From a virus (taxonomy: Duplodnaviria; Caudoviricetes): 64,000 nucleotides of DNA. This document shows, piece after piece, positions 10,700 to 24,370 of the stretch. Made by a program: the position numbers and the translations under genes. A model generated the notes under the pieces. The model had not been told where the DNA came from, ran no database searches, and worked only from the letters and a program-made list of their open reading frames with translations. The stretch is from positions 1-64,000 of IMG/VR virus record IMGVR_UViG_2515154169_000001. One strand, written 5' to 3'. Numbering within the stretch: the stretch's first letter is position 1; each line of letters opens with the position of its first letter.

Positions 10700-10786
10700 T
10701 GACCTGCGGTTTCTTAGAAGTTTTGTTGACCAAATCCACTTGGTCTGTGCGGTTAGTCCAAGTGGTTTTGGTCAAGGATGGAAGTA
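10700..10786 (+). promoter_or_regulatory. Early promoter/operator module, copy 4
   Basis: Near-identical to 8701-8786. Confidence 0.8.
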
Positions 10787-10870
10787 GTGCCAACCACCCC
10801 AAAATCCCCACCCCGAGAGCGCCCGCCAATCGCGGTGAGCGCCGTCCGGCATGCCCGAAAGGAACCTCCG

Positions 10871-11701
10871 ATGCGAATCCCGAACGAAGTCCTCGCCGTC
10901 CTCACCGACCGGCGGACGGTCATCAACCGCGACCGGGTGCAGATCCCGTTCCCGCTCGACCGGCCCGTGTACGACCAGGTCAACCGGATCCTCAAGGAGT
11001 TCGGCGGCCGGTGGGACGGCAGGCAGAAGGTCCGGGCCCACGTCTTCCCTTATCTGATCGAGGACTTCATGCGGCAATCGCTGCTCCTCGGAGAGTTCCC
11101 GTCCAAGCAGGACGAAGGATGGTTCCCCACCCCGCCCGCCGTGGTGGAGGAGATCCTCACGCTCGCCGGCATCCACCAGGGCGTCACGGTCCTCGAGCCG
11201 TCAGCCGGCGCCGGGGCCATCGCCGGACCGGCCGCCGCCCGAGGCGCCGTCGTCGACTGCGTCGAGATCAACGAGCGCCGCGCCCAGGTCCTCCGCGAGC
11301 ACAGCGGAGCCCGCCGCGTCCGCCACGCCGACTTCCTCCAGCTCGACCCGCTCGACTACGAGACCGGGTTCGACCGGGTCCTGATGAACCCGCCGTTCCA
11401 CAGCGGCCTGGACCACATCCGGCACGCCATGGGCTTCCTCGGCGAGGACGCGCTCCTCGTCGCCGTCATGTCCGCAGGCATCACCTGGTGGACGGACCGC
11501 AAGAGCACCGAACTCCGCGAGCTGATCGAAGAGGCCAACGGCGAGTTCATCCCGCTCCCCGACGACGCCTTCGCAGAGTCCGGCGCCAACGTCCGCACCG
11601 TCCTCGTCACCGCCGAGACCTGGCCCGGCCGCCGCCGGGTCCTCCCCGACCACGCCTGGCACCGGGCCCAGCCCCGCCAGCTCGACCTGTTCGCCGCCTA
11701 G
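10871..11701 (+). CDS. SAM-dependent N6-adenine-type DNA methyltransferase
   Basis: WFPTP, VLEPSAGAG (motif I), MNPPF (motif IV); ends in QLDLFAA. Confidence 0.85.
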   Translation: MRIPNEVLAVLTDRRTVINRDRVQIPFPLDRPVYDQVNRILKEFGGRWDGRQKVRAHVFPYLIEDFMRQSLLLGEFPSKQDEGWFPTPPAVVEEILTLAGIHQGVTVLEPSAGAGAIAGPAAARGAVVDCVEINERRAQVLREHSGARRVRHADFLQLDPLDYETGFDRVLMNPPFHSGLDHIRHAMGFLGEDALLVAVMSAGITWWTDRKSTELRELIEEANGEFIPLPDDAFAESGANVRTVLVTAETWPGRRRVLPDHAWHRAQPRQLDLFAA

Positions 11702-11768: not shown

Positions 11769-12200
11769 GTGAGCGATTCGCTCGCCCTCGCCACCTGCAC
11801 CTACCAAGAGTTCCAGCCCGTCATGGGCGTGCCCGTGCGGACCACCGCCGGGCACCCCCGATTCCCCCTCGCCTACCAGCTCGCCGGCCACGCCCGGCTC
11901 GTCACCCCGACCCGACAGCTGCTCGCCGCGAACCTCCCCGAGGATGCCTACGAGTTCAGCTACCGGCGCCTGCTCGCCGGTCACGGCCTCGACGCCATCA
12001 CCGCCGAACTCGCCGCGATCGCCGCAGGCCACGAGCCCGGCCGCCCGCTGGTCCTGCTCTGCTTCGACCGCCTGAACAAGCCCGGCGCATGGTGCCACAG
12101 GAGTCACCTGGCCAGGTGGTGGACCGAGCAGACCGGCCAGGACGTGCCCGAACTCGGGGCCCGCCCCGCCGGGCCCCCGCCCGCAACCCTCTTCGACTGA
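11769..12200 (+). CDS. DUF488-like protein
   Basis: VLLCFD...WCHRSHLARWW motif. Confidence 0.6.
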   Translation: MSDSLALATCTYQEFQPVMGVPVRTTAGHPRFPLAYQLAGHARLVTPTRQLLAANLPEDAYEFSYRRLLAGHGLDAITAELAAIAAGHEPGRPLVLLCFDRLNKPGAWCHRSHLARWWTEQTGQDVPELGARPAGPPPATLFD

Positions 12201-14534: not shown

Positions 14535-14619
14535 TGACCTGTGGCTTCCTGGAAGTTCCTTTGCCAAATCTCTTTGGATTACGGGTTAGTCCAAAGCGAT
14601 TTGGTCAAGGATGGAAGTA
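14535..14619 (+). promoter_or_regulatory. Early promoter/operator module, copy 5
   Basis: TGACCTGTGG...CCAAATCTCTTTGG...CCAAAGCGATTTGG...AAGGATGGAAGTA. Confidence 0.8.
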
Positions 14620-14661
14620 GAACACAACACCACAAACCGCCACCCCCCAAGGGAGAACGAC

Positions 14662-15036
14662 ATGACCGCCACCGCCCTCACCCCCGCCCAGCTCGCCCAC
14701 GGTCTTCGCATCTTCACCGAGGGCGCGTTCGAACTGGACGAAGCGGCCCGCGCCCGGCTGACCAAGGCCCTGGCCTCCGGCGAGCACATCTCCTCCTTCC
14801 TCCTGGAGGGCGTGGTCGAGAAGCAGGCCGACGCGGCCAACTGGCGGCAGCTGATCAACCGTCTGGACAAGGGCGAGGACGTGATCGAGGCCGTCACCAC
14901 CATCCGCCGGATGCTGACCAAGAAGCTGCTGGAGTACGGCGAGTCGACCTCCACCTCGGCGATCGCGAACGACATGAACCGCCAGGAGCGCGAGGCGGCC
15001 CGGCGCTTCCTCGACCGCACCGGCGGCCTGATCTGA
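14662..15036 (+). CDS. Hypothetical helical protein
   Basis: RBS AAGGGAG and high GC3. Confidence 0.75.
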   Translation: MTATALTPAQLAHGLRIFTEGAFELDEAARARLTKALASGEHISSFLLEGVVEKQADAANWRQLINRLDKGEDVIEAVTTIRRMLTKKLLEYGESTSTSAIANDMNRQEREAARRFLDRTGGLI

Positions 15037-15098
15037 CCCACACCTCACCGGGCCCGCCCCAACCGGGGCGGGCCCCACCCCGCACGAGAGGAACCCCG

Positions 15099-16295
15099 AT
15101 GACCGAGACCTGCCCGACCAGCCCCGAAGAGGCCGCCCTGTCCCACGCGTTCAACGACGCGTACGCGACAGCCACGCAGGCCCGCCGCGATGCGCTGGCC
15201 GCAGCCGCCGCCTACGTCGCCCACCTGATCCGGCCTCACCTGCCGGCCGCCGCGACGATCGGCGTCGACACCGCCGACGGCGAGCTGCGCACCGTCCGCG
15301 ACTGCGACCGCTCGGTGCTCTGGTACGCCCCGGCCAGCGCGGGCGCCGGTCTGCCCGACGGCGTCGTCGACGAGGTCGAGGGCCTGATGCGTGACGTGCT
15401 GGAACTGGGCGCAGACGAGAAGGCGCTCGAGGACATGGGGTGGTCGAACCCCGACGCGTACAGCGGCATGTACGACCTGACCCTGCCCGGGACGCCCGAG
15501 GAGCGTGAGCGCCGCGAGTACATCGTCGCCGGGCAGAAGCAGGGAGCCGGCTTCGAGCTGTGGGACGTTGCCCCGGCCCCGACCGACCCGGACAAGCGGG
15601 CGCGGGCCCTGGAGGAGCTGGAGGTCGACGCGCACGACGCGTTCGGCACGATCGAGACCGTGTGGGCAGCCACCGCCCGCGAGGCCGTCACCACCCTGGT
15701 CGCCGAACTGGGCAAGGTGTCCGGCCTCGCCGACTACGGGCTGACCGAGGACAGCAACACCGACTGCCTCAGCCCGGCTGCGAAGGCGGAGCCCGGGAAG
15801 GCCCGCGCGGCGGCCGTCGTGGGCCGTGTCCTGCACGAGGTCGAAGCCGGGTTCATCGCCGGTCACGGCCCGTTCCGCGTCACCGACTTCGACGGCACCG
15901 AGCAGCGGGAGACCAGCGACCGGATCCTCGCGGCCATCCTGAACTCGGGCATCGGCTGGCCGGGCGGCACCGTGGCCGCCCGCACCACCTGGACCGGCCC
16001 GAGCCCGGCCGGTGACCTGGCCATCGCGTGCGCGGCCCTCTCCGCGGCCGGTCCCCTGCCCGGCACGGTCCTGGAGCACGTGGCCGTCATCGGTGAACTC
16101 GGCCTCGACGGCACCCTCCGGTCGGCCGGCGACGTGCCCGCCGCGGTCGCCGCCGCGAGGAACGTGGGCCGCCGCACGGTGGTCGTGCCCGCCGAGCACG
16201 GCGCGCTCGACCTGCCCGGCGTGTTCGTGTGCGGCGCGGGGAACCTCCGCGACGCCCTGGCCCTGCTCAACGTGGGCGCCCAGGTCCTCCAGTAG
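15099..16295 (+). CDS. Hypothetical protein with a C-terminal ChlI/ComM(YifB)-type Lon-like domain and no ATPase
   Basis: ETSDRILAAILNSG...DLAIACAAL...IGELGLDGTLR...VVVP. Confidence 0.7.
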   Translation: MTETCPTSPEEAALSHAFNDAYATATQARRDALAAAAAYVAHLIRPHLPAAATIGVDTADGELRTVRDCDRSVLWYAPASAGAGLPDGVVDEVEGLMRDVLELGADEKALEDMGWSNPDAYSGMYDLTLPGTPEERERREYIVAGQKQGAGFELWDVAPAPTDPDKRARALEELEVDAHDAFGTIETVWAATAREAVTTLVAELGKVSGLADYGLTEDSNTDCLSPAAKAEPGKARAAAVVGRVLHEVEAGFIAGHGPFRVTDFDGTEQRETSDRILAAILNSGIGWPGGTVAARTTWTGPSPAGDLAIACAALSAAGPLPGTVLEHVAVIGELGLDGTLRSAGDVPAAVAAARNVGRRTVVVPAEHGALDLPGVFVCGAGNLRDALALLNVGAQVLQ

Positions 16296-16405: not shown

Positions 16406-17053
16406 ATGCGCCCCATCCGCCTCCCTGACGACCATCTCCCCCAGACCGGCGCGGCCACCTGGACGTGCCGCCAGTGCTCGGCCCCGTGGCCGTGCGATAC
16501 CGCGGCCTCGTACCTGACGCCGGGCCGGTGCGACTGCGGCAGCCCCACCTGGTGGGAGCAGCGCGGCCCCCGCCGCTGGCACACCGGCCCGCGCTGCCAC
16601 ACCGCAGCCGAGGCCGTCGCCGCCCGGGCCGCCGACACCGCGCAGGGCCGCGCGCCGCACTACCCGCCGAGCCACTACTACCCGCCGAAGCCGTACCGGC
16701 CGCGCCGCCAGCGCCCGCCCTACCGGCACGACCTCACCGGCCCCGGCGACGTCCGACCCGGCCTGTGGCTGTGGGTCAAGCCCGGCGGGCTGCACCCCGG
16801 CTGGGGCGACATCCACCTCCTCGCCATGCTCACCGCCCCCCGCGCCCCGAAGTGTGAGATCTGGCTGTCGCTGGACGGCACCGTGCACGACGTCCGGGCG
16901 GACCACCTGATCCTGTTGGGCCTGCCCCGCGGTCTCCGCGCCGACTGGGCCCGGTGGACGGTCGCCCGGCACCTCGAACACGCGGCACCCGCGGCCCCGG
17001 CCCGCCCCCAGCCGGTGCAACCGGACCTGTTCAGCGGCCTCACCGGCGCCTAA
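16406..17053 (+). CDS. Hypothetical Zn-binding protein
   Basis: WTCRQCSAPWPC; RBS GAGAGGA. Confidence 0.65.
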   Translation: MRPIRLPDDHLPQTGAATWTCRQCSAPWPCDTAASYLTPGRCDCGSPTWWEQRGPRRWHTGPRCHTAAEAVAARAADTAQGRAPHYPPSHYYPPKPYRPRRQRPPYRHDLTGPGDVRPGLWLWVKPGGLHPGWGDIHLLAMLTAPRAPKCEIWLSLDGTVHDVRADHLILLGLPRGLRADWARWTVARHLEHAAPAAPARPQPVQPDLFSGLTGA

Positions 17054-17157
17054 GCCGATCACACCCCCCTGCCTTCCCTCCCCCCAAGTGGCCGCCACGA
17101 GGCGGCCACAGCCCCATCCAGCCCCGCCCCCACCGACACCACCAGGAGCCACCCCCC

Positions 17158-17601
17158 GTGACCAGCCCGAATCAGCCCCTCATCGTGATCCCCTGCGCCC
17201 GGCTCAAGTGGCACGAGCCTGCCCCGGCCGGGAAGTTCTACATCGGCCGCTACCACCAGGCGTGCAGGCAGGCCGCCGACGCCCTCACCCGCAACGGCGG
17301 CCAGGTCCTCATCCTGTCCGGCGGCTACGGCCTGGTCACCCTCGACCAGCGCCTGGAGCCGTACGACACCCGCATCGACGACCCGGACGCCGTCACCCCC
17401 GACGAGCTGCGCGCCCAGGCCCGCGCCCTGGCCGTCGACCAGGCCGACGACGTCACCGTGCTCGCCGGCGCCAAGTACGCCGCGGCGGCCCGTTCCGTGT
17501 GGCCCCGCGCGACGGCGCCGCTCCACGGCCTGGGCATCGGCCGCCAGCTCCAGCGCCTCGCACAGATCCGAGACGGGGCTGCAACGGCTGTGCAGCTTTG
17601 A
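17158..17601 (+). CDS. DUF6884/YaaA-like protein
   Basis: IVIPCxxxK...PAGKFYIG...ILSGGYGLV...EPYD. Confidence 0.65.
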   Translation: MTSPNQPLIVIPCARLKWHEPAPAGKFYIGRYHQACRQAADALTRNGGQVLILSGGYGLVTLDQRLEPYDTRIDDPDAVTPDELRAQARALAVDQADDVTVLAGAKYAAAARSVWPRATAPLHGLGIGRQLQRLAQIRDGAATAVQL

Positions 17602-17640: not shown

Positions 17641-18180
17641 ATGCAGACCGCACAGGGCATGGACTGGGGCACGGTACCGGCTTGGTTCAGCGCGATCCTG
17701 TCCGGCGGCTCGGTGCTGCTGGCGCTCTACATCATCCTGCGCGACCGGAAGAAGGCCGAGCGCGAAGATGCCATGAAGGTGATCTGCTGGCGGGACTCGA
17801 GCGATGAAGAGAGAACGACTCACGTGCGCAACGCTGCCGGTCGTGCAATTCACCATGTTCGGATGCTTGGCTGGCTGCGGCCGAATGGCGGGGGTACAGC
17901 CGAGGACGTGGGATTTGAGGGATGGGGGATTGCTGGACTTCTCCATCCCGATGAGGATGCGGAAGTTACGACGCTCTACAGGCTGGGCGATCGCAAGATC
18001 GTCCACTGGGCGGTGCAGTTCACGGATGCCGACGGCAGGCAGTGGGTGCGCGAGTTGAACAGCGGGCGGCTCGCAGAGCAGGTCTCACAGCGGCGCAAGG
18101 CCCTCTGGCGTCGTGCCGTGCGACGCGAAGTACGACACCGGCGCGCCATGTGGCGCCAGGTACGAGGCTACGGCAGATGA
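17641..18180 (+). CDS. Single-pass membrane protein (moron)
   Basis: RBS GGGAGG, N-terminal TM helix, FTDADGRQWVR motif, lower GC3. Confidence 0.7.
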   Translation: MQTAQGMDWGTVPAWFSAILSGGSVLLALYIILRDRKKAEREDAMKVICWRDSSDEERTTHVRNAAGRAIHHVRMLGWLRPNGGGTAEDVGFEGWGIAGLLHPDEDAEVTTLYRLGDRKIVHWAVQFTDADGRQWVRELNSGRLAEQVSQRRKALWRRAVRREVRHRRAMWRQVRGYGR

Positions 18181-18261
18181 CGGCACATCAAATCTGATCA
18201 CGGAGAGTGATGTATGCTCCGTGGCGGCCGGTCGTTCTGAGCAGCGGCGCGATCGGACCGC

Positions 18262-18334
18262 GCGTTGGTGGTGTAACAGCAGCACACCCGGCTTCCGGCC
18301 GGGAGGTCCAGGTGCGAATCCTGGCCGGCGCTCC
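18262..18334 (+). tRNA. tRNA-Gly(TCC), atypical
   Basis: Cloverleaf: acceptor GCGTTGG/CCGGCGC, D-arm GTGT/GCAC, anticodon arm CCCGG-CTTCCGG-CCGGG, T-arm CCAGG-TGCGAAT-CCTGG, discriminator T, then CC(G). Confidence 0.85.
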
Positions 18335-18337
18335 GAT

Positions 18338-18369
18338 GAAGGCCCCCGCCCAGCAGGGCGGGGGCCTTC
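18338..18369 (+). terminator. Hairpin after the tRNA
   Basis: GAAGGCCCCCGCCC-AGCA-GGGCGGGGGCCTTC. Confidence 0.75.
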
Positions 18370-18464
18370 GGCATTGAGCAGGGGAAACGCGGCAGATGCC
18401 GGATTAGCCGGTTGCGTTACCATCTCGCCCCGTCTTGACCGCCCCTCGTCGAGGAGCCGCCCCC

Positions 18465-19910
18465 ATGTTCCACGGCTCGATCCCAGCGGACATGTGCCGC
18501 ATCGTCAGGGAGCACGTCTCCCTCTGGACCGACGTCACCGACGTCTACAACGTGTGCTGCGGGAACTTCACCGTAGAGAAGACCATCGCCAGCCTCGGCA
18601 AGAACCTGCACTCGTGCGACGTGCTGATGTACTCCACCGCGATCGGCCGGTACTACGCCGGCGACCCGTACCCGCTCGTCCTCACCCCGTCCGCCGAGGC
18701 CGAGTTCCCGTGGATCACCCAGTACCACGACGCCCCGGAGAAGCAGCTCGCCACGATGCTGCTGTGCACGCGCCTCGCCCCGCTCATGGGGAAGCGCTCC
18801 AACCCGTACTGGGACAAGATGCGCCTGGCCTACGAGCAGCAGTGGCCCGACCTCCACGCGAAGACCACCGCGAAGATCCTGGCCGCCGGCGAGTCGCTCA
18901 AGCTCGCCTCGTACGCCGCCGAGGACGCCCTGACGTGGGTCGACAAGATCCCCGACGGGGCCGGAGTCGTGTCCTATCCGCCGTTCCACGGCGCGGGCAA
19001 GAACTTCGTGAGGGACTTCGCGAAGCTGGAAGAGATGTTCGAGTGGACTCCGCCCGAGTTCACGATCATGGAGGATCCTGAGCTGGAGTACCTGATCCAG
19101 CGGATCACGGACCGGGAGCACTGGCTGCTCGGCACCAACGAGGAGATCCCGGAGATGGAGGAGTTCCTGCGCGGCCGGACCCGCACCACGAACCGCGGCA
19201 TCCCGATCTGGGTGTACGCCAAGTCCGGGCCGATCCGCCTCGTCCAGCCCCGCCAGCACACCGAAGCGTGGCCCGGCCCGCACCTCGCCGACGAAGAGAT
19301 CGGCGACACCGCCAGCCTCGCGGTCCTCACCTCGGGGCAGTTCGCGGCGCTGCGGTCGGCGTACATGAACCACAACATCCGGCCGGGCTCGGAGTCCCTT
19401 GCCGTCGCCGTCTTCGTCGACCGGAAGCTCGTCGGGGTGTTCGCGTACTCGTGGGCGCCGACCCTCGGGAATTGGGCCGCGCACCTGCCGCAGCAGCCCA
19501 GCGTCTACCTGCTGTCCGACTTCCCCGTGTCCACCAGCCGGTACGCGAAGCTGTCGAAGCTGATCGTGATGGCCGCCGTGTCCCGCGAGGCCCAGCTCCT
19601 CGCCTGGCGGCACGGACACCGCCGCTACCAGTCCCTCGCCACCACGGCGTTCACGAAGCGCCCGGTGTCGATGAAGTACCGCGGCGTGCTGCGCCTGCTG
19701 AAGCGCGATCAGAAAGACGTCCTCAAGGAGGACTGGGCGCACGGCATCGACCCGAACGACTCGTACTACGCGCAGCAGTACCAGCTGCAGTACGGCGGCC
19801 CGTACACCGGGAAGCCCATGCAGCAGGTCCTCACCGAGTGGAAGAAGCGGTACGCCAAGGACCTCAAGCCGGCCGCCGGCGCCCGCGCCGCAGCCGCATC
19901 CGGCGACTGA
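18465..19910 (+). CDS. Putative adenine-modification enzyme: N6-methyltransferase-like fold plus C-terminal Mom-like GNAT domain
   Basis: FHGS, VYNVCCGNFT, SCDV and SYPPF resemble degenerate Dam-type motifs. VFVDRKLVGVFAY, YLLSDF, SKLIV, TTAFT and SMKYRG follow a GNAT-like pattern. Confidence 0.7.
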   Translation: MFHGSIPADMCRIVREHVSLWTDVTDVYNVCCGNFTVEKTIASLGKNLHSCDVLMYSTAIGRYYAGDPYPLVLTPSAEAEFPWITQYHDAPEKQLATMLLCTRLAPLMGKRSNPYWDKMRLAYEQQWPDLHAKTTAKILAAGESLKLASYAAEDALTWVDKIPDGAGVVSYPPFHGAGKNFVRDFAKLEEMFEWTPPEFTIMEDPELEYLIQRITDREHWLLGTNEEIPEMEEFLRGRTRTTNRGIPIWVYAKSGPIRLVQPRQHTEAWPGPHLADEEIGDTASLAVLTSGQFAALRSAYMNHNIRPGSESLAVAVFVDRKLVGVFAYSWAPTLGNWAAHLPQQPSVYLLSDFPVSTSRYAKLSKLIVMAAVSREAQLLAWRHGHRRYQSLATTAFTKRPVSMKYRGVLRLLKRDQKDVLKEDWAHGIDPNDSYYAQQYQLQYGGPYTGKPMQQVLTEWKKRYAKDLKPAAGARAAAASGD

Positions 19911-19976
19911 CCGCCCCGCACCGCCCCCCGCCGCTGCTCACGGCCCCCACCTCACCGCGTCTGGAAGGACGACCCC

Positions 19977-20885
19977 GTGAAGATCAGCGTGCAGTCTGGT
20001 GACCCCCGCGACCTGACCCTCCTCGAACTTAACGCTAGGTACATGCGCCATGAGCAGTTCCAGCAGCTCGTCGGCAACGTGCGCCGCGACGGCGCCCTCA
20101 CGTCCACGCCGTTCGTGTGGTTCAACCAGGAGACCGGGCAGCGCATCGTCCTGTCTGGCAACCACCGCGTGAAGGCCGCCGTCGAAGCGGGCCTCGAAGA
20201 GATCCACTGGCTGGAGACCGACGAGGAACTGCCCGAAGGCCAGCGCCTCGGCATCCAGATCTCCCACAACAGCATCGTCGGCGAGGACGACCTGGCCATC
20301 CTCAAGACCCTGTACGAGCGCATCGACGAACTCGACTGGCGCGAGTACGCGGGCATCGACGACGCCACCCTCGAACTCCTCGCCGACCTCGACAGCCCCT
20401 CCATCAGCGAGGCCAACCTCACCTTCCAGACCCTGGCGATCGTGTTCCTCCCCGACGACCTCAAGGCCGCCCAAGACGTCATCCGTGACGCGCTCGCCCT
20501 GTCCTCGAGCGCAGACGCCGTCTGGGTCGCCCAGCTCCGCCAGTACGACCAGGTCATGGCCGGCCTCGACCTCGCCTCCAAGAGCCACGACGTCACCAAC
20601 GTCGCCACAGCCCTCGGCGTGATCCTCCAGACGTTCACCGACCACGCCGACGAGCTCGCCGACGGCTGGTTCGACCGCGACACCGGCGAAGCGCGGCATC
20701 ACGGCATGGCGCCGCTCCTCACGCTGCTCCACACCGACGCCATCCCCGCACAGTCCGCCGCGACCATCGAGCGGGCCATTCAGCAGGCAGTGGCACGAGG
20801 AGACGTCCCCTCTGAGCACCGGCACAAGGTCTTGGAACTGTGGGCACGGACCTACCTCGACACCCCTGCTCCGGCCACTACCTGA
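19977..20885 (+). CDS. ParB/Srx-like domain protein
   Basis: NARYM...LVGNV...VLSGNHRVKAA...ISHN. Confidence 0.8.
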   Translation: MKISVQSGDPRDLTLLELNARYMRHEQFQQLVGNVRRDGALTSTPFVWFNQETGQRIVLSGNHRVKAAVEAGLEEIHWLETDEELPEGQRLGIQISHNSIVGEDDLAILKTLYERIDELDWREYAGIDDATLELLADLDSPSISEANLTFQTLAIVFLPDDLKAAQDVIRDALALSSSADAVWVAQLRQYDQVMAGLDLASKSHDVTNVATALGVILQTFTDHADELADGWFDRDTGEARHHGMAPLLTLLHTDAIPAQSAATIERAIQQAVARGDVPSEHRHKVLELWARTYLDTPAPATT

Positions 20886-20914: not shown

Positions 20915-21562
20915 ATGACCACGAACCCGCCCATCACCCTTGATCCGGCCCTGGATCCCTGGGAACGGCAGCCCAAAGAGACCCCCAAGAAGCACGGCCA
21001 GTTCCTCACGTACCGTGACCTCGGCCGCGCGAGAACCTTGGTGAAGGCTGCGGAGGGCCTGACACTCGCGTACGGGCATGTGAGGAACGTCGCCGGAGAG
21101 TTCCGGTGGCGCGAGCGCGCCGAGGCCCACGACCGCCACCTGGACCGCCTGTACGAGGCCATGTGGCTCGAAGAGCGCCGCAAAGCAGCCGAGACCGACG
21201 CCAAGTTGCTCGGCGCAATCGTCGGCAAGCTGGCGCAGCGCCTCGGCTCGCTGAACGCCGCCGAGATGACCGTCGGCGACTTCGTGCGCCTCCTGGACGT
21301 CGCCATGCGGCACCGGCGCGTCCTGTTCGGCGACCCCACGGAGACGATCGCCCTCACCGGGCAGGGCGGCAACCCACTGGCCGTGCAACTCGCCGAGTTC
21401 GAGCAGCTACCCGCCGACCAGCGGCGCCTGCGCATCGCCGACCTCGCCGCGACCGTCGCCCGCCGCGTCAAAGCCGTCGACGGCAGCGACGACGAGGACG
21501 ACGGCAACGAAGGCGACTGCCCGGCCGCCGGCGACGAGGACGAGGGCAGCGAGGAGGAGTGA
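20915..21562 (+). CDS. Terminase small subunit-like protein
   Basis: PWERQPKE...FLTYRDLG...WRERAEAHD; stop overlaps the TerL start. Confidence 0.7.
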   Translation: MTTNPPITLDPALDPWERQPKETPKKHGQFLTYRDLGRARTLVKAAEGLTLAYGHVRNVAGEFRWRERAEAHDRHLDRLYEAMWLEERRKAAETDAKLLGAIVGKLAQRLGSLNAAEMTVGDFVRLLDVAMRHRRVLFGDPTETIALTGQGGNPLAVQLAEFEQLPADQRRLRIADLAATVARRVKAVDGSDDEDDGNEGDCPAAGDEDEGSEEE

Positions 21563-24370
21563 GCCGCCCGCCCGGGGACGCCCAACTGGTGCACGCCGAC
21601 GACGGCGCGGTGTACCAGCAGCTGGAGGCTGCCAGAAACGCGATGAGCCGGGACCTCCTGGCGAACCCGGTCACCCTGGCCCGGGGCCTCGACGCCACGT
21701 ACCGGATGCGCCCGCACCTTCGGGTCATCGGCGAGGCCCTGGCCCGACTACGACCGCCTGTTGATCATCACCCCGCCGCAGGTCGGGAAGTCCACGACGG
21801 TCGCCGAGTGGTTCCCGTTCTGGTGGCTGGCGATGCACCCCGAGGACAAGGTCGCCGTCACCTCGTACTCGGACGACCTGGCGCTCAGGCGCGGCAAGAC
21901 GATCCGTGCCTATGTGGAGGAGTACGGCGCCGAGTACGACCTGCGGCTGTTGGCCGGCTCCGGTGCCATGCAGGACTGGTCACTGACGAAGGGCGGTGGA
22001 GTCCGATCTGTATCAGTTGGTAAGGGTTTGACGGGGCATTCGGTAAACTGTGTGGCCGGTGACGTGGTGATCCGTACGCCGCGCGGTGACGTTCCCATTG
22101 GTGCATACGTCGGCTCCGGCAGCACGGACCCTGTGCTGGCGTACGACCATGACCACGAACGCGCGGTTTGGGCTTCCGTCACCGCTACGAGCGTGAGCGA
22201 GAGGGAGACCCTTGAAGTCGTCACCCGAGCTGGCCGAACGGTCCGCTGCACCCCAGAGCACCGGTTCTACGTCCCCGGCAGCGGGTACGTTGCTGCCGCC
22301 GACCTCCGCCCGGGAGACCCTCTCATCACGGGGCCGGACGTTGATCGAGGTGGCGTGCGTGCAGTGCAGCGAGACGTTCTGGCGGCTTCCCTCGGTACTC
22401 GCGAGAGCGCGACGCGAGGGGAAGCCGGGGCCGTTCTGCGGTCGGGCCTGCTCGAACAAGGCGCGGGGCGGGGCACCGCAGACCTGCGGACACTGCGGCA
22501 CGGCCATGCCCCGCGTGACGGGCAAGACGTACTGCTCGGCGGACTGTCGGAAGGCCGCGTTTCTGATGACGCTGACCTGCGACGTGTGCGGCGAAATGTA
22601 CCGACTCCCGCAGGCAGACCACGCGAAGAAGGTCCAACGCGGGCAGACGAAGTTTCTGTGCTCTCGCACTTGCTGGGCCAAGGCCAGGGCGCAGACCCGG
22701 GCGTGCGTGGGCTGCGGGACGGAGATGCCGAACCAGCAGTGGCGGCAAATCCGGTACTGCTCGCTGGCCTGCAAGGAACAGCACCCGAAGGAGCGCACAC
22801 GGAAGCTCCCCGAGAAGGCGTGCAAGCAGTGCGGCACGACGTTCCGGCCGAAGAGCAGCAGGACGGCCTACTGCTCACGGCCCTGCGCCGACCTGGCGCA
22901 CTCGCTGCGGATGACCGGCGAGGGCAACTCGCGGTACACCGACGGCACCTCGTATGCAACCTGGTTCCGAGCGATGCGCCCGCTGATCCTCGACCGCGAC
23001 GGGCGACGCTGCGTGGCCTGCAAGACACCCGAGACATTCATGACGATCGTGCGCAAGGGCAAGAAGCAGCGCCGCACAACGTTCCACGTGCACCACATCA
23101 ACGAGGACGTACGGGACAACCACCCGGAGAACCTGGTCAGCCTCTGCAAGACGTGCCATGCGGTGCACCACAAGTCGACTACGACGCCGTGGCCGTGGTT
23201 CGCCCGGTACGCGGCCGACCAGTCCGCGTCTATGACCTCCAAGTGGAAGGAACGAGCAACTTCTTTGCAGGCCAGGTACTCGTCCACAACTGCTTGATCG
23301 TCGACGATCCGCACAAGGACCGGGCCGATGCCGAGTCCGAGGCGTCCCGCAGGCACCTGCACGACTGGTACTCGTCGACCGCGTTGAAGCGTCTGCAGCC
23401 GGACCGGAACGCCGTGGTGGCCATCATGACCCGCTGGCACCCGGACGACTTCGCCGGCCGCCGCCTCGCGGAGGAAGGCCGCGTGGAGGACGGCGGCCGG
23501 TGGAAGGTCGTCCACCTCCCCGCGATCGCCGACCCGAAGTTCGGGCCCGACCCGCTCGGCCGCCAGCCCGAGGACCCGCTGCCGCACCCGAAGATCCCCA
23601 CCAGGGACCGGCGGGCGCTGCTGGCGTGGTGGCAGGACATGAAGCGCACGTCGATCGTGCGTGACTGGCACTCCCTGGCCCAGGGCGACCCGCAGCCGGC
23701 TGAGGGTGCGCTGGTGTCGGAGGAGCTGCTGCGCCTCATCCGCGACCCGGGCGAGACCGTGGAGCCGCAGAAGATCGCCGTGGCCATCGACCCCTCGGGC
23801 GGCGGCCGCGACGTCGCCGGCGTCATCGGCGGCTTCCTGGGTGACGACGGGCGGGTGTGGGTCACCGACGACGTCTCGGCGGCCATGTCGTCGGCCGAGT
23901 GGTCCACCGCGGCGTGCCGCCTCGCTCACCGTACGAACGCGGCGATCATCTACGTCGAGTGGAACTTCGGCCGCGACATGTGCGTGCTCGCCATCCAGAC
24001 GTCCTGGGAGGCGCTGCAGAACGCCGGGGAGATCCCCAAGGGTGTCCTGATGCCCGCCATCGCCCCGGTGCGCGCCAAGCAAGGCAAGCTGCTCCGCGCC
24101 GAACCGGTGGCGCAGCTGATGGTGCAGGACAAGGTGCGGCTGCGCGGGGTGTTCACCGACATGGAGCGGGAGTGGGCGACTTGGATGCCGACCGACCCGG
24201 ACTCGCCCGGCCGGATCGACGCCTCGTGTGTCCTGGCGTACGGCCTGATCCCCGAGGCCAACAAGGGCGCTATCGTCCACGCCCCGCTCCCCACCGCCCC
24301 GCAGCCCAGCCAGATCGGACGGCCGGCCACCGGCGCTGCCGCCGCGTACACCCGGCAGATCTCCCGATGA
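21559..24370 (+). CDS. Terminase large subunit with intein; frameshift near 21745
   Basis: Walker A TPPQVGKS, Walker B CLIVDDPHK after intein removal, MTRWHPDD, nuclease motifs VAIDPS and DSPGRIDA. The N-terminal part (GTG at 21559) is in a different frame. Confidence 0.9.
22049..23290 (+). mobile_element. Intein (414 aa) in TerL
   Basis: Begins CVAGDVVIRT, block B CTPEHRF, ends VYDLQVEGTSNFFAGQVLVHN, followed by Cys+1. Confidence 0.92.
22341..23297 (+). CDS. Zn-finger-repeat HNH endonuclease nested in the intein in the +1 frame (start uncertain; frame open from 22212)
   Basis: Repeated CxxC...FCSxxC units and RDGRRCVAC...HVHHINEDVRDNHPENLVSLCKTCHAVHH; high GC3 in this frame. Confidence 0.85.
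   Translation: MIEVACVQCSETFWRLPSVLARARREGKPGPFCGRACSNKARGGAPQTCGHCGTAMPRVTGKTYCSADCRKAAFLMTLTCDVCGEMYRLPQADHAKKVQRGQTKFLCSRTCWAKARAQTRACVGCGTEMPNQQWRQIRYCSLACKEQHPKERTRKLPEKACKQCGTTFRPKSSRTAYCSRPCADLAHSLRMTGEGNSRYTDGTSYATWFRAMRPLILDRDGRRCVACKTPETFMTIVRKGKKQRRTTFHVHHINEDVRDNHPENLVSLCKTCHAVHHKSTTTPWPWFARYAADQSASMTSKWKERATSLQARYSSTTA

Follow-up and report, generated by a model that had tools for sequence, protein, structure and literature searches.

A tRNA-Gly gene carried by a provirus of the Caudoviricetes (Duplodnaviria) very probably encodes a non-translational partner of the enzyme whose gene lies next to it, a fusion of a Dam-like domain with a GNAT-fold domain. The stretch analysed covers positions 1 to 64,000 of IMG/VR record IMGVR_UViG_2515154169_000001, a 76-kb provirus record; this 64,000-nucleotide (nt) stretch, called the window here, is high in G+C and most closely related to Streptomyces prophages. 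As an explanation of the whole, an adenine modification that depends on tRNA in the manner of Mom, with a donor tRNA of the phage's own from which glycine passes to DNA adenine, is judged reasonably probable, its chemistry being inferred. A ParB-like gene and a DUF488-like gene accompany the pair, and the features concerned are as follows.

11769-12200, + strand: DUF488-like gene, 143 amino acids (aa), with an LVLLCF...WCHR motif (tblastn, hmmsearch).
18262-18337, + strand: atypical tRNA-Gly(UCC) gene, U73 and the encoded CC included (ARAGORN; Rfam tRNA, 53.2 bits; family model R1, 79 bits).
About 18339-18370, + strand: G+C-rich hairpin of 15 bp with no T run, directly 3' of the tRNA (sequence and RNA fold).
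18465-19910, + strand: two-domain enzyme, 481 aa, Dam-like plus GNAT-fold (PF22555, PF22559, structure models).
19977-20885, + strand: ParB/Srx-like protein, 302 aa, with an invariant SG(N)HR (phrog_7405, 2.9e-62; ParB-like phrogs).

The tRNA is the only one that ARAGORN reports in the window (tRNA-Gly(tcc), 18262-18334, + strand). Rfam RF00005 scores it at 53.2 bits against a gathering score of 29 (E 3.1e-10), and R1, a covariance model built from 37 ARAGORN-called copies of the family, gives it 79 bits. A first-pass annotation, made from the letters of the window alone, had described a complete tRNA-Gly(TCC) cloverleaf with a U discriminator, and ARAGORN and Rfam both recover it; the T loop TGCGAAT, the G38 and the two G-U acceptor pairs that it listed can be read directly from the sequence. 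The acceptor stem consists of G1-C72, C2-G71, G3-C70, U4-G69, U5-G68, G6-C67 and G7-C66. The earlier statement that no CCA is encoded holds only for the final base, as the discriminator U73 is followed by genomic CCG, which supplies the two Cs and leaves A76 missing.

Bacterial glycyl-tRNA synthetase (GlyRS) recognizes an identity set of G1-C72, C2-G71, G3-C70, U73, C35 and C36, and the window tRNA carries all of it. Compared with an elongator tRNA-Gly, the window copy keeps U33 but not the open 7-nt anticodon loop, G18G19 or U55. Its anticodon loop is C-U-U-C-C-G-G (G37, G38), in which C32 and G38 can pair; its D loop, AACAGCA, has no GG; and its T loop, UGCGAAU, has G at position 55 where tRNAs have U55. 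The tRNA ends 130 nt before the ATG at 18465, in agreement with the gap of about 130 nt given at first. A -10 box had also been proposed, and a promoter scan of 17900-18700 returned no site. The proposed terminator hairpin fared better in part: the 15-bp G+C hairpin at about 18339-18370 is present, but it has no T run, and a rule-based terminator scan that included it called none. The hairpin may act as a terminator or as a processing signal. A search of sequencing runs for the window listed no RNA run, and the three runs that it did list are metagenomic DNA with small word shares.

The arrangement recurs in many other phages. With tblastn against 50,697 phage records, homologues of the enzyme were found in 15, ten of them Mycobacterium phages (Jeon, Taptic, D12, PR and others) with about 36% identity and five of them Gordonia phages (Jollymon, Soos, Sting and Clawz among them) with 39-41% identity. 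The family comprises at least 253 proteins in a set of 5.8 billion proteins, and is present in 558 IMG/VR stretches and 292 times in one-genome-per-species contigs. Its hosts include Streptomyces, Actinomadura, Kitasatospora, Nakamurella, Cytobacillus and Neobacillus, together with Oscillospiraceae, Selenomonadaceae, Synergistaceae, Chloroflexi and Dormibacterota. The tRNA-gene counts that follow refer to the best 80 of the 558 IMG/VR stretches and the best 80 of the 292 one-genome-per-species relatives. In the IMG/VR set ARAGORN reports 48 tRNAs, spread over 46 of the 80 loci, and in the species-genome set 26, spread over 25 of the 80. Of these 74 tRNAs, it types 70 as Gly and assigns none to a different amino acid; the other four have an odd anticodon loop and receive no type. 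R1 finds matches in 52 of the IMG/VR loci, in the window, Jeon, Clawz and Jollymon, and in 29 of the species-genome loci. The tRNA-like gene is nearly always on the same strand as the enzyme gene and 20-170 nt upstream of it.

In a quick maximum-likelihood IQ-TREE of the enzyme with 82 rows (L076 and L086 were left out as short translated open reading frames, ORFs), the RNA lies at most 400 nt upstream in 50 rows, elsewhere in the locus in five and nowhere in 24, while three rows cannot be judged. Carriers of the tRNA occur on both halves of the tree. The expectation that homologues would have an adjacent tRNA-Gly-like gene was borne out in a large share of the loci (52/80 and 29/80), Jeon and Gordonia phages included, and failed in one Streptomyces clade and in scattered rows.

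In Jeon, an annotated tRNA-Gly(tcc) stands directly 5' of the enzyme homologue, which is followed by a ParB-like gene; this copy is found by ARAGORN and missed by Rfam. Neither program finds a tRNA in the Gordonia phage loci. Inspection by eye reveals a cloverleaf of the form GCGCGAC...GUCGCGC-U-CCA in the same intergenic place, with compensatory changes between Clawz and Jollymon. These copies are detected only by R1, at 50 (Jollymon) and 53.6 bits (Clawz). Both tRNA-like genes (Jollymon, L001 4821-4894; Clawz, L003 4823-4896) are unannotated in GenBank and have an 8-nt T loop (UAACCAAU or UAACCACU); the Jollymon copy combines a CCC anticodon with C33.

Several loci vary the arrangement. Tandem tRNA-Gly-like genes are found in L026 (2271-2344 and 2349-2422), L034 (1478-1551 and 1553-1626), L040 (2261-2333 and 2351-2424) and L102 (2272-2345 and 2350-2423). 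The tandem copies precede the enzyme and differ at position 34, for example CCC then ACC. In L043, a locus of the fusion family, the tRNA-Gly-like gene (2361-2434, - strand) is on the strand opposite the enzyme. L028 and L029 encode near-identical enzymes (end branches 0.017 and 0.0096), yet only L029 has a tRNA-like gene, 63 nt upstream; none is present in the 421 nt of upstream sequence of L028, which could mean that the gene was lost recently or that the assemblies differ. A full-model search of 15 tRNA-less loci with filters off returned only weak matches, the best at 15.4 bits (E 0.18). Two of these, L077 5465-5494 (15.4 bits, E 0.18) and L048 894-931 (11.8 bits, E 1.3), are short GCG...CGCUCCA hairpins, which resemble a possible acceptor-arm minihelix and are probably due to chance.

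Across the family, the parts of the RNA needed for charging are kept and those needed for decoding drift. Among 53 distinct tRNA copies aligned to the model, G1, C2, G71, C72 and U73 are present in all, G3 and C70 in 52, C35 in 52 and C36 in 53, and CCA is encoded in 45-50. Position 34, by comparison, is U in 27 copies, A in 15, C in nine and G in two. U33 is found in 40 of the 53; U55 is found in 34 and G55 in 14. D-loop GG occurs together with U55 in 14 copies and in no copy with G55, and the full canonical set (U33, U54, U55, C56 and GG) is seen in ten. Positions 32 and 38 can pair in 51 copies and covary (CG 43, UA 5, AU 3; eight double changes), so the anticodon loop is effectively one of 5 nt. 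In the cloverleaf as a whole, 98.3% of cells are paired, where shuffles give 66.0% and slid partners 38-42%; the alignment was fitted to the model and somewhat favours the structure. Double changes affect 19 of the 22 pairs of the cloverleaf.

Host genes behave differently. In two prophage-carrying genomes used as a control, all eight distinct host tRNA-Gly are canonical (U33, A37-A38, TTC in the T loop, D-loop GG), whereas the prophage copy in one of these genomes has C33 and C32-G38. Judged from these sequence features, the family RNA looks chargeable but unfit for decoding. Cellular precedents for such RNAs exist. In the non-proteogenic tRNA-Gly of staphylococci, which the first-pass annotation had rightly described as having altered T-arms, TGC or TGT replaces the TTC of the T loop; these tRNAs are poor ligands of elongation factor Tu (EF-Tu), and the Fem transferases prefer them (Rietmeyer et al., PMC7826273). 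According to these authors, non-proteogenic tRNA-Gly had been detected only in staphylococci (PMC7826273).

The RNA might, alternatively, be no donor for the enzyme but a decoy or a replacement tRNA that counters host defences acting on tRNA-Gly or Gly-tRNA, such as acetylating GNAT toxins, anticodon nucleases or toxSAS, and it would then neighbour the enzyme as shared anti-defence cargo. Phage tRNAs that offset tRNA-targeting defences have been described, and some toxins select tRNA-Gly (PMC12409363, PMC11559606, PMC9177977); the best-conserved part of the RNA is its acceptor end, the very region that these toxins probe. A replacement tRNA must decode, however, and in this family U33 is lost in 13 of 53 copies, A34 is present in 15 of 53, and 32 and 38 are paired and covarying. 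Every ARAGORN-typed tRNA beside the enzyme genes is Gly across very different hosts, the usual position 20-170 nt upstream on the same strand suggests a functional unit rather than loose cargo, and the same type of RNA adjoins true Mom-family genes. A decoy or replacement tRNA is accordingly considered decidedly unlikely.

The tRNA-like structure might instead be a cis-acting part of the transcript, and not a donor: either a place where RNase P/Z cuts the mRNA of the enzyme free, or a sensor for the state of glycine or GlyRS through which expression is controlled. Transcripts punctuated by tRNA-like structures are known from other systems, and many loci leave just 22-78 nt before the start codon, which makes co-transcription likely. 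A processing signal would have no need of C35, C36, U73 or an encoded CCA, yet these are kept in 45-53 of the 53 copies. The RNA is on the opposite strand in L043 and L093 and elsewhere in the locus in five tree rows, and in the window a strong hairpin separates it from the gene. A cis-acting role is very unlikely.

The enzyme itself belongs to a recognizable fusion family. It matches PF22555 (DAM-like-phage1) over residues 2-274 (1.6e-94, 316.7 bits against a cut-off of 27) and PF22559 (GNAT-phage-like) over residues 281-463 (2.6e-54, 183.9 bits against a cut-off of 27), while NCBIfam gives no match. Both domains score above gathering and stand in the order of the family. The two Pfam families are also given for 117 of 120 listed relatives; the remaining three have PF22555 only and are short (300-321 aa). 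The methyltransferase-like/GNAT-like fusion proposed at first sight is thus confirmed, as are the motifs VYNVCCG and SYPPF quoted for 18465-19910. The structure model of the whole enzyme has a predicted local distance difference test (pLDDT) score of 88.3. In structural comparison, residues 1-257 align with DNA adenine methylases, including a Dam-like target-recognition insert in a Rossmann-type fold: Escherichia coli Dam (2g1p_A, Z 13.2, 198 residues aligned), T4 Dam (1q0s, Z 12.5, 186 residues) and DpnM (2dpm, Z 12.4, 200 residues).

N6-adenine methyltransferases typically have a catalytic motif IV of the form (D/N/S)PP(Y/F/W), of which PPF is the adenine-binding part, and an S-adenosylmethionine-binding motif I of the form FxGxG. 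Motif IV of the present family is (Y/F)PPF in 43 of 43 members and never begins with D, N or S: at position 171, 33 members have Y and ten have F, and P172, P173 and F174 are invariant in the 43 aligned members. Motif I is GCSGNF in the family consensus and VCCGNF in the window enzyme. Within the Rossmann-type core, no family member departs from G33 or from the acidic D52. Methyl transfer by the Dam-like domain is not expected, and the domain probably serves only for DNA binding and adenine presentation.

NCBI names the relatives 'putative antirestriction adenine methyltransferase', and taken at its word this name would make the enzyme a producer of plain N6-methyladenine (m6A), with the tRNA as an ordinary helper of translation. 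The naming, the Dam-like fold and the invariant G33 and D52 are consistent with such a role. It is nevertheless highly improbable: motif IV opens with Y or F, never with D, N or S, throughout the 43 members, motif I is GCSGNF and not FxGxG, the fused GNAT domain is kept in every full-length listed relative (117 of 120 rows), and the features of the tRNA speak against decoding. A separate methyltransferase gene with an NPPF motif is, moreover, present in the window at 10778-11701.

The C-terminal half is the candidate transferase. The presence of a GNAT fold there had been set beforehand as a test of the donor-tRNA interpretation, and it was found: folded alone, the domain gives a GNAT fold with a pLDDT of 89.6, and Foldseek returns 185 matches at E <= 0.001, of which every listed row is a GNAT-type acyltransferase or contains one. 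A search of 48,161 representative chains, independent of Foldseek, places Mom of phage Mu (8bv8_B) first, with a Z of 11.2, a root-mean-square deviation of 3.5 A and 154 residues aligned, in a tie with ordinary GNATs. The first-pass annotation had also stated that Mom is reported to use glycyl-tRNA as donor, and this is right: Mom moves glycine from Gly-tRNAGly to adenine N6 in double-stranded DNA, and the glycylated adenine rearranges on the base to N6-carbamoylmethyl-adenine, the Mom product (Silva et al., Nat Commun 2026, PMC13219725). Mom accepts all three E. coli tRNA-Gly isoacceptors and does not accept Gly-tRNAAla; its tRNA recognition is thought to be centred on the 3' acceptor end, and it is described as a scavenger of host tRNA (PMC13219725). 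Its essential residues are R111 and S124, and it has a helix-turn-helix-like insertion at residues ~175-209 (PMC13219725). The hhalign alignment of the two families, at a low probability of 31%, sets the invariant Lys of an LSKL motif (K365) opposite R111, and a variable A/S/G opposite S124. The invariants of the GNAT domain include TTA and SMKYRG motifs.

Genuine Mom-family loci offer a further view of the association. Sixteen were examined, found with Mu Mom as query, and in three an R1 match is adjacent to the Mom-family gene: Microbacterium phage Antuna and Arthrobacter phages Martha and LeeroyJ, the latter two of the same genus. The Antuna tRNA (L093 2154-2228, - strand), annotated as tRNA-Gly(ccc), is on the strand opposite the Mom-family gene. 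In all three phages, a ParB-like gene is next to the Mom-like gene or one gene away. As a ParB-like gene, a GNAT gene and a tRNA-Gly occur together in both settings, the trio has formed around two sequence-unrelated GNAT families, one of which, Mom, is experimentally known to use Gly-tRNAGly.

The in-silico tests of the donor-tRNA interpretation were all favourable or neutral, and the interpretation is supported by them. Several observations weigh against it. On the side of the protein, Mom leads two ordinary GNATs, 1y9k_A (10.7) and SbzI 8zt4_B (10.5), by less than one Z unit, which amounts to a tie, and it reaches only rank 28 in Foldseek. PF25680, the Mom family, is unmatched by the window GNAT domain at E <= 10, and one of 39 family members reaches E 0.057. 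An hhalign comparison of the GNAT family with eight Mom homologues gives a probability of 31% over 59 columns, and the enzyme-family profile has no match among Protein Data Bank (PDB) sequences at E <= 10. In view of this lack of significant sequence kinship, the enzyme is described as Mom-like in its working and is not filed in the Mom family. Which atom is modified, and even in which molecule, is deduced from the Dam-like fold and the analogy with Mom. On the side of the RNA, 13 of the 16 Mom-family loci have no adjacent R1 match, four of them with flanks of just 300 nt. No tRNA-like gene lies within ~2.5 kb in 28 of the 80 IMG/VR and 51 of the 80 species-genome loci; most tRNA-less rows of the tree form one tight Streptomyces clade of 15, and the others are scattered. 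R1 also scores host tRNA-Gly highly and cannot by itself separate private from ordinary copies. Finally, the window tRNA retains U33 and a UCC anticodon, so this copy could formally still decode.

Two of these objections can be qualified. Homologue loci that have no tRNA are no refutation of a donor-tRNA role, because Mu Mom itself uses host tRNA-Gly. As R1 finds tRNA-Gly in general, the phage copies are set apart by the sequence features listed above and not by their score.

The proteins encoded around the enzyme also bear on its substrate. Directly downstream in the window lies the ParB/Srx-like gene, which matches, besides phrog_7405, the ParB-like partition protein phrogs phrog_620 (9.7e-7) and phrog_723 (4.3e-6); PF02195 ParB_N stays under its cut-off of 26.3, at 14.5 bits (E 0.036). 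In all 83 loci tested, the gene that directly follows that of the enzyme is a ParB-like homologue, and S60, G61, H63 and R64 are invariant in 36 ParB-like sequences. The order foreseen by the first-pass annotation, a ParB-like gene and then the terminases, is the one found (phrog_7405, 2.9e-62, with ParB_N below its cut-off). The packaging genes that the module adjoins, given for context only, are the following.

20915-21562, + strand: terminase small subunit (phrog_6299, 1.5e-22).
21761-24370, + strand: terminase large subunit, interrupted by an intein (phrog_38, 2.9e-67; PF14890 Intein_splicing, 5.7e-12).

In the large subunit, PF14890 spans residues 125-510, and terminase matches flank the intein on both sides.

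A phage thymine dioxygenase, 5mYOX, requires a ParB-like protein as activator (PMC13229309), and ParB-terminase loci have been predicted to modify DNA at packaging (PMC4738411). The ParB-like protein of the window is proposed to be an activator or DNA loader of the enzyme. The enzyme could alternatively move tRNA-borne glycine, or an acyl group from acyl-CoA, to a target other than adenine: a packaging protein, the ParB-like partner, another base or a DNA end. GNATs that use aminoacyl-tRNA do have many kinds of target (PMC13219725). The N-terminal domain, however, aligns with E. coli Dam, T4 Dam and DpnM at Z 12.4-13.2 and keeps the invariant PPF, and a ParB-like partner in a terminase neighbourhood fits a DNA substrate (PMC4738411). 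A target other than adenine is considered unlikely, and transfer of glycine to DNA adenine stays the preferred reading.

The second protein partner is the DUF488-like gene, which in the window lies ~6 kb upstream of the tRNA. It is matched by 15 of 15 family queries (tblastn, E 1e-12 to 3e-43) and by hmmsearch with the family profile (E 1.5e-41). A DUF488-like ORF with the motif LVLLCFED..KP..WCHR is found upstream of the enzyme in 121 of 163 related loci, and the usual gene order is DUF488-like, tRNA, enzyme, ParB-like. Pfam gives no match for the window copy, and the L048 copy reaches 23.8 bits on PF22751 (DUF488-N3a), under the cut-off of 27. A DUF488 clade is reportedly predicted to act on nucleic-acid termini, and the DUF488-like partner may belong to it, which would suit a target of the enzyme other than adenine. 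Two genes closer to the tRNA were considered as stand-ins for the DUF488-like gene and rejected as unrelated, namely the DUF6884 gene at 16954-17601 (hhalign probability 0.4%) and the ORF at 17641-18180 (0.1%).

The preferred reading can be set out as a sequence of steps. The tRNA-Gly-like RNA would be transcribed and matured by RNase P and 3' processing, with the CCA enzyme adding the missing A76. Host GlyRS would charge it by way of G1-C72, C2-G71, G3-C70, U73, C35 and C36. The RNA would be without U55, G18G19 and the open 7-nt anticodon loop, features on which ribosomes and EF-Tu rely, and their loss would create a supply of activated glycine reserved for the module and kept out of competition with translation. 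The Dam-like domain, which has no polar catalytic residue in motif IV and has kept the PPF adenine pocket, would bind DNA and present the target adenine. The fused GNAT domain could then transfer the glycyl group from the 3' end of the tRNA to the adenine, with N6 as the most likely site, and the product may rearrange to N6-carbamoylmethyl-adenine as in Mu. The always-adjacent ParB-like protein may activate the enzyme or load it on DNA. To judge from the terminase genes next to the module, the DNA may receive its mark around packaging, as a means of blunting restriction by the host.

Extended to its full scope, this becomes a four-part kit. A non-translational viral tRNA, kept only as a handle that GlyRS can charge (a 5-nt anticodon loop, any base at position 34), would give glycine to the Dam-like/GNAT fusion, which, with an obligatory ParB-like protein and a DUF488-like enzyme, would aminoacylate adenines of phage DNA around packaging, in phages of Actinomycetota, Bacillota and other phyla. 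The chances of this fuller statement are about evenly balanced; in it, the DUF488-like enzyme perhaps acts on the end of the tRNA or of the DNA.

Other genes of the window lie outside the module. The separate methyltransferase ORF at 10778-11701 (+ strand) has the motifs LEPSAGAGA and VLMNPPF and matches PF05175 MTS (1.2e-6); it is directly 5' of the DUF488-like gene, and given its NPPF motif the prophage may also make ordinary m6A. Upstream of the module are a 584-aa protein (14541-16295, + strand) with a C-terminal ChlI-like domain (4.2e-11) and the DUF6884 protein (16954-17601, + strand; 6.9e-20). The tRNA was also considered as an integration site, a reading that was rejected: the gene sits within the prophage, with replication-side genes on one side of it and the terminases on the other, and the recurrence of the tRNA in lytic phage genomes further opposes it.

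The protein family is already catalogued, with Pfam entries and an NCBI name. The Pfam entries may stem from a paper on the rhodanese-phosphatase superfamily including DUF488, said to be by Burroughs and Aravind (2023), in which the neighbouring proteins may already be described. A search of the accessible literature found no paper linking the fusion enzyme to a tRNA, and a word search of the main text of PMC13219725 gave zero hits for fusion, methyltransferase, mycobacteri, actinobacteri and 'encoded tRNA'. The module combines known kinds, Mom-type tRNA-dependent DNA modification and a staphylococcal-type non-proteogenic tRNA, and introduces no categorically new principle.

Its interest lies in the combination. 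Until now, Mu Mom, which uses host tRNA, is the one enzyme for which tRNA-dependent DNA modification has been demonstrated. If the present reading is true, the RNA would be the first viral non-proteinogenic tRNA, and the enzyme would represent a second way of modifying DNA with the help of a tRNA, put together independently of Mom. Viruses could then evolve aminoacyl-donor RNAs of their own, and 'odd' phage tRNA genes that are now annotated as codon-usage helpers, or missed, would be explained. A new DNA hypermodification would be expected in the culturable actinophages Jeon, Clawz and Jollymon, where it is directly testable. The family would also offer a natural series of tRNA bodies that maps the needs of GlyRS and of the transferase against those of the ribosome. 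With it, a ParB-fold protein would be seen to serve a DNA-modifying enzyme for the second time.

Three known systems allow a closer comparison. Mom of phage Mu (PF25680, 8bv8) is, like the GNAT domain of the window enzyme, a phage-encoded GNAT fold, although the two share no significant sequence kinship. Mom is a single domain, whereas the window GNAT domain is fused to a Dam-like domain. Mom uses host tRNA-Gly and is under Com control, while the window-type module usually has a tRNA-like gene and a DUF488-like gene of its own; unlike Mom, the window-type enzyme is always paired with a ParB-like protein.

The NP1-NP3 tRNA-Gly of Staphylococcus aureus and S. epidermidis are charged by the normal GlyRS and act outside translation as donors for the GNAT-fold transferases FmhB, FemA and FemB, and they bind EF-Tu and the ribosome poorly (PMC7826273). 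Their TGC/TGT change is shared with the TGCGAAT of the window and with the G55 of 14 of the 53 phage copies. In contrast to the phage RNAs, they are cellular and serve peptidoglycan synthesis (PMC7826273). The phage copies go beyond them in accepting any base at position 34, in having lost U33 in 13 of 53 cases and in the covarying 32-38 pair.

The 5mYOX-ParB systems resemble the window module in that a phage DNA-modifying enzyme has an adjacent stand-alone ParB-fold protein. They differ in their chemistry and in the fold of the enzyme, and they have no tRNA. Dependence on ParB is experimental for 5mYOX, whereas for the window enzyme it is proposed only from the constant adjacency of the two genes (83/83).

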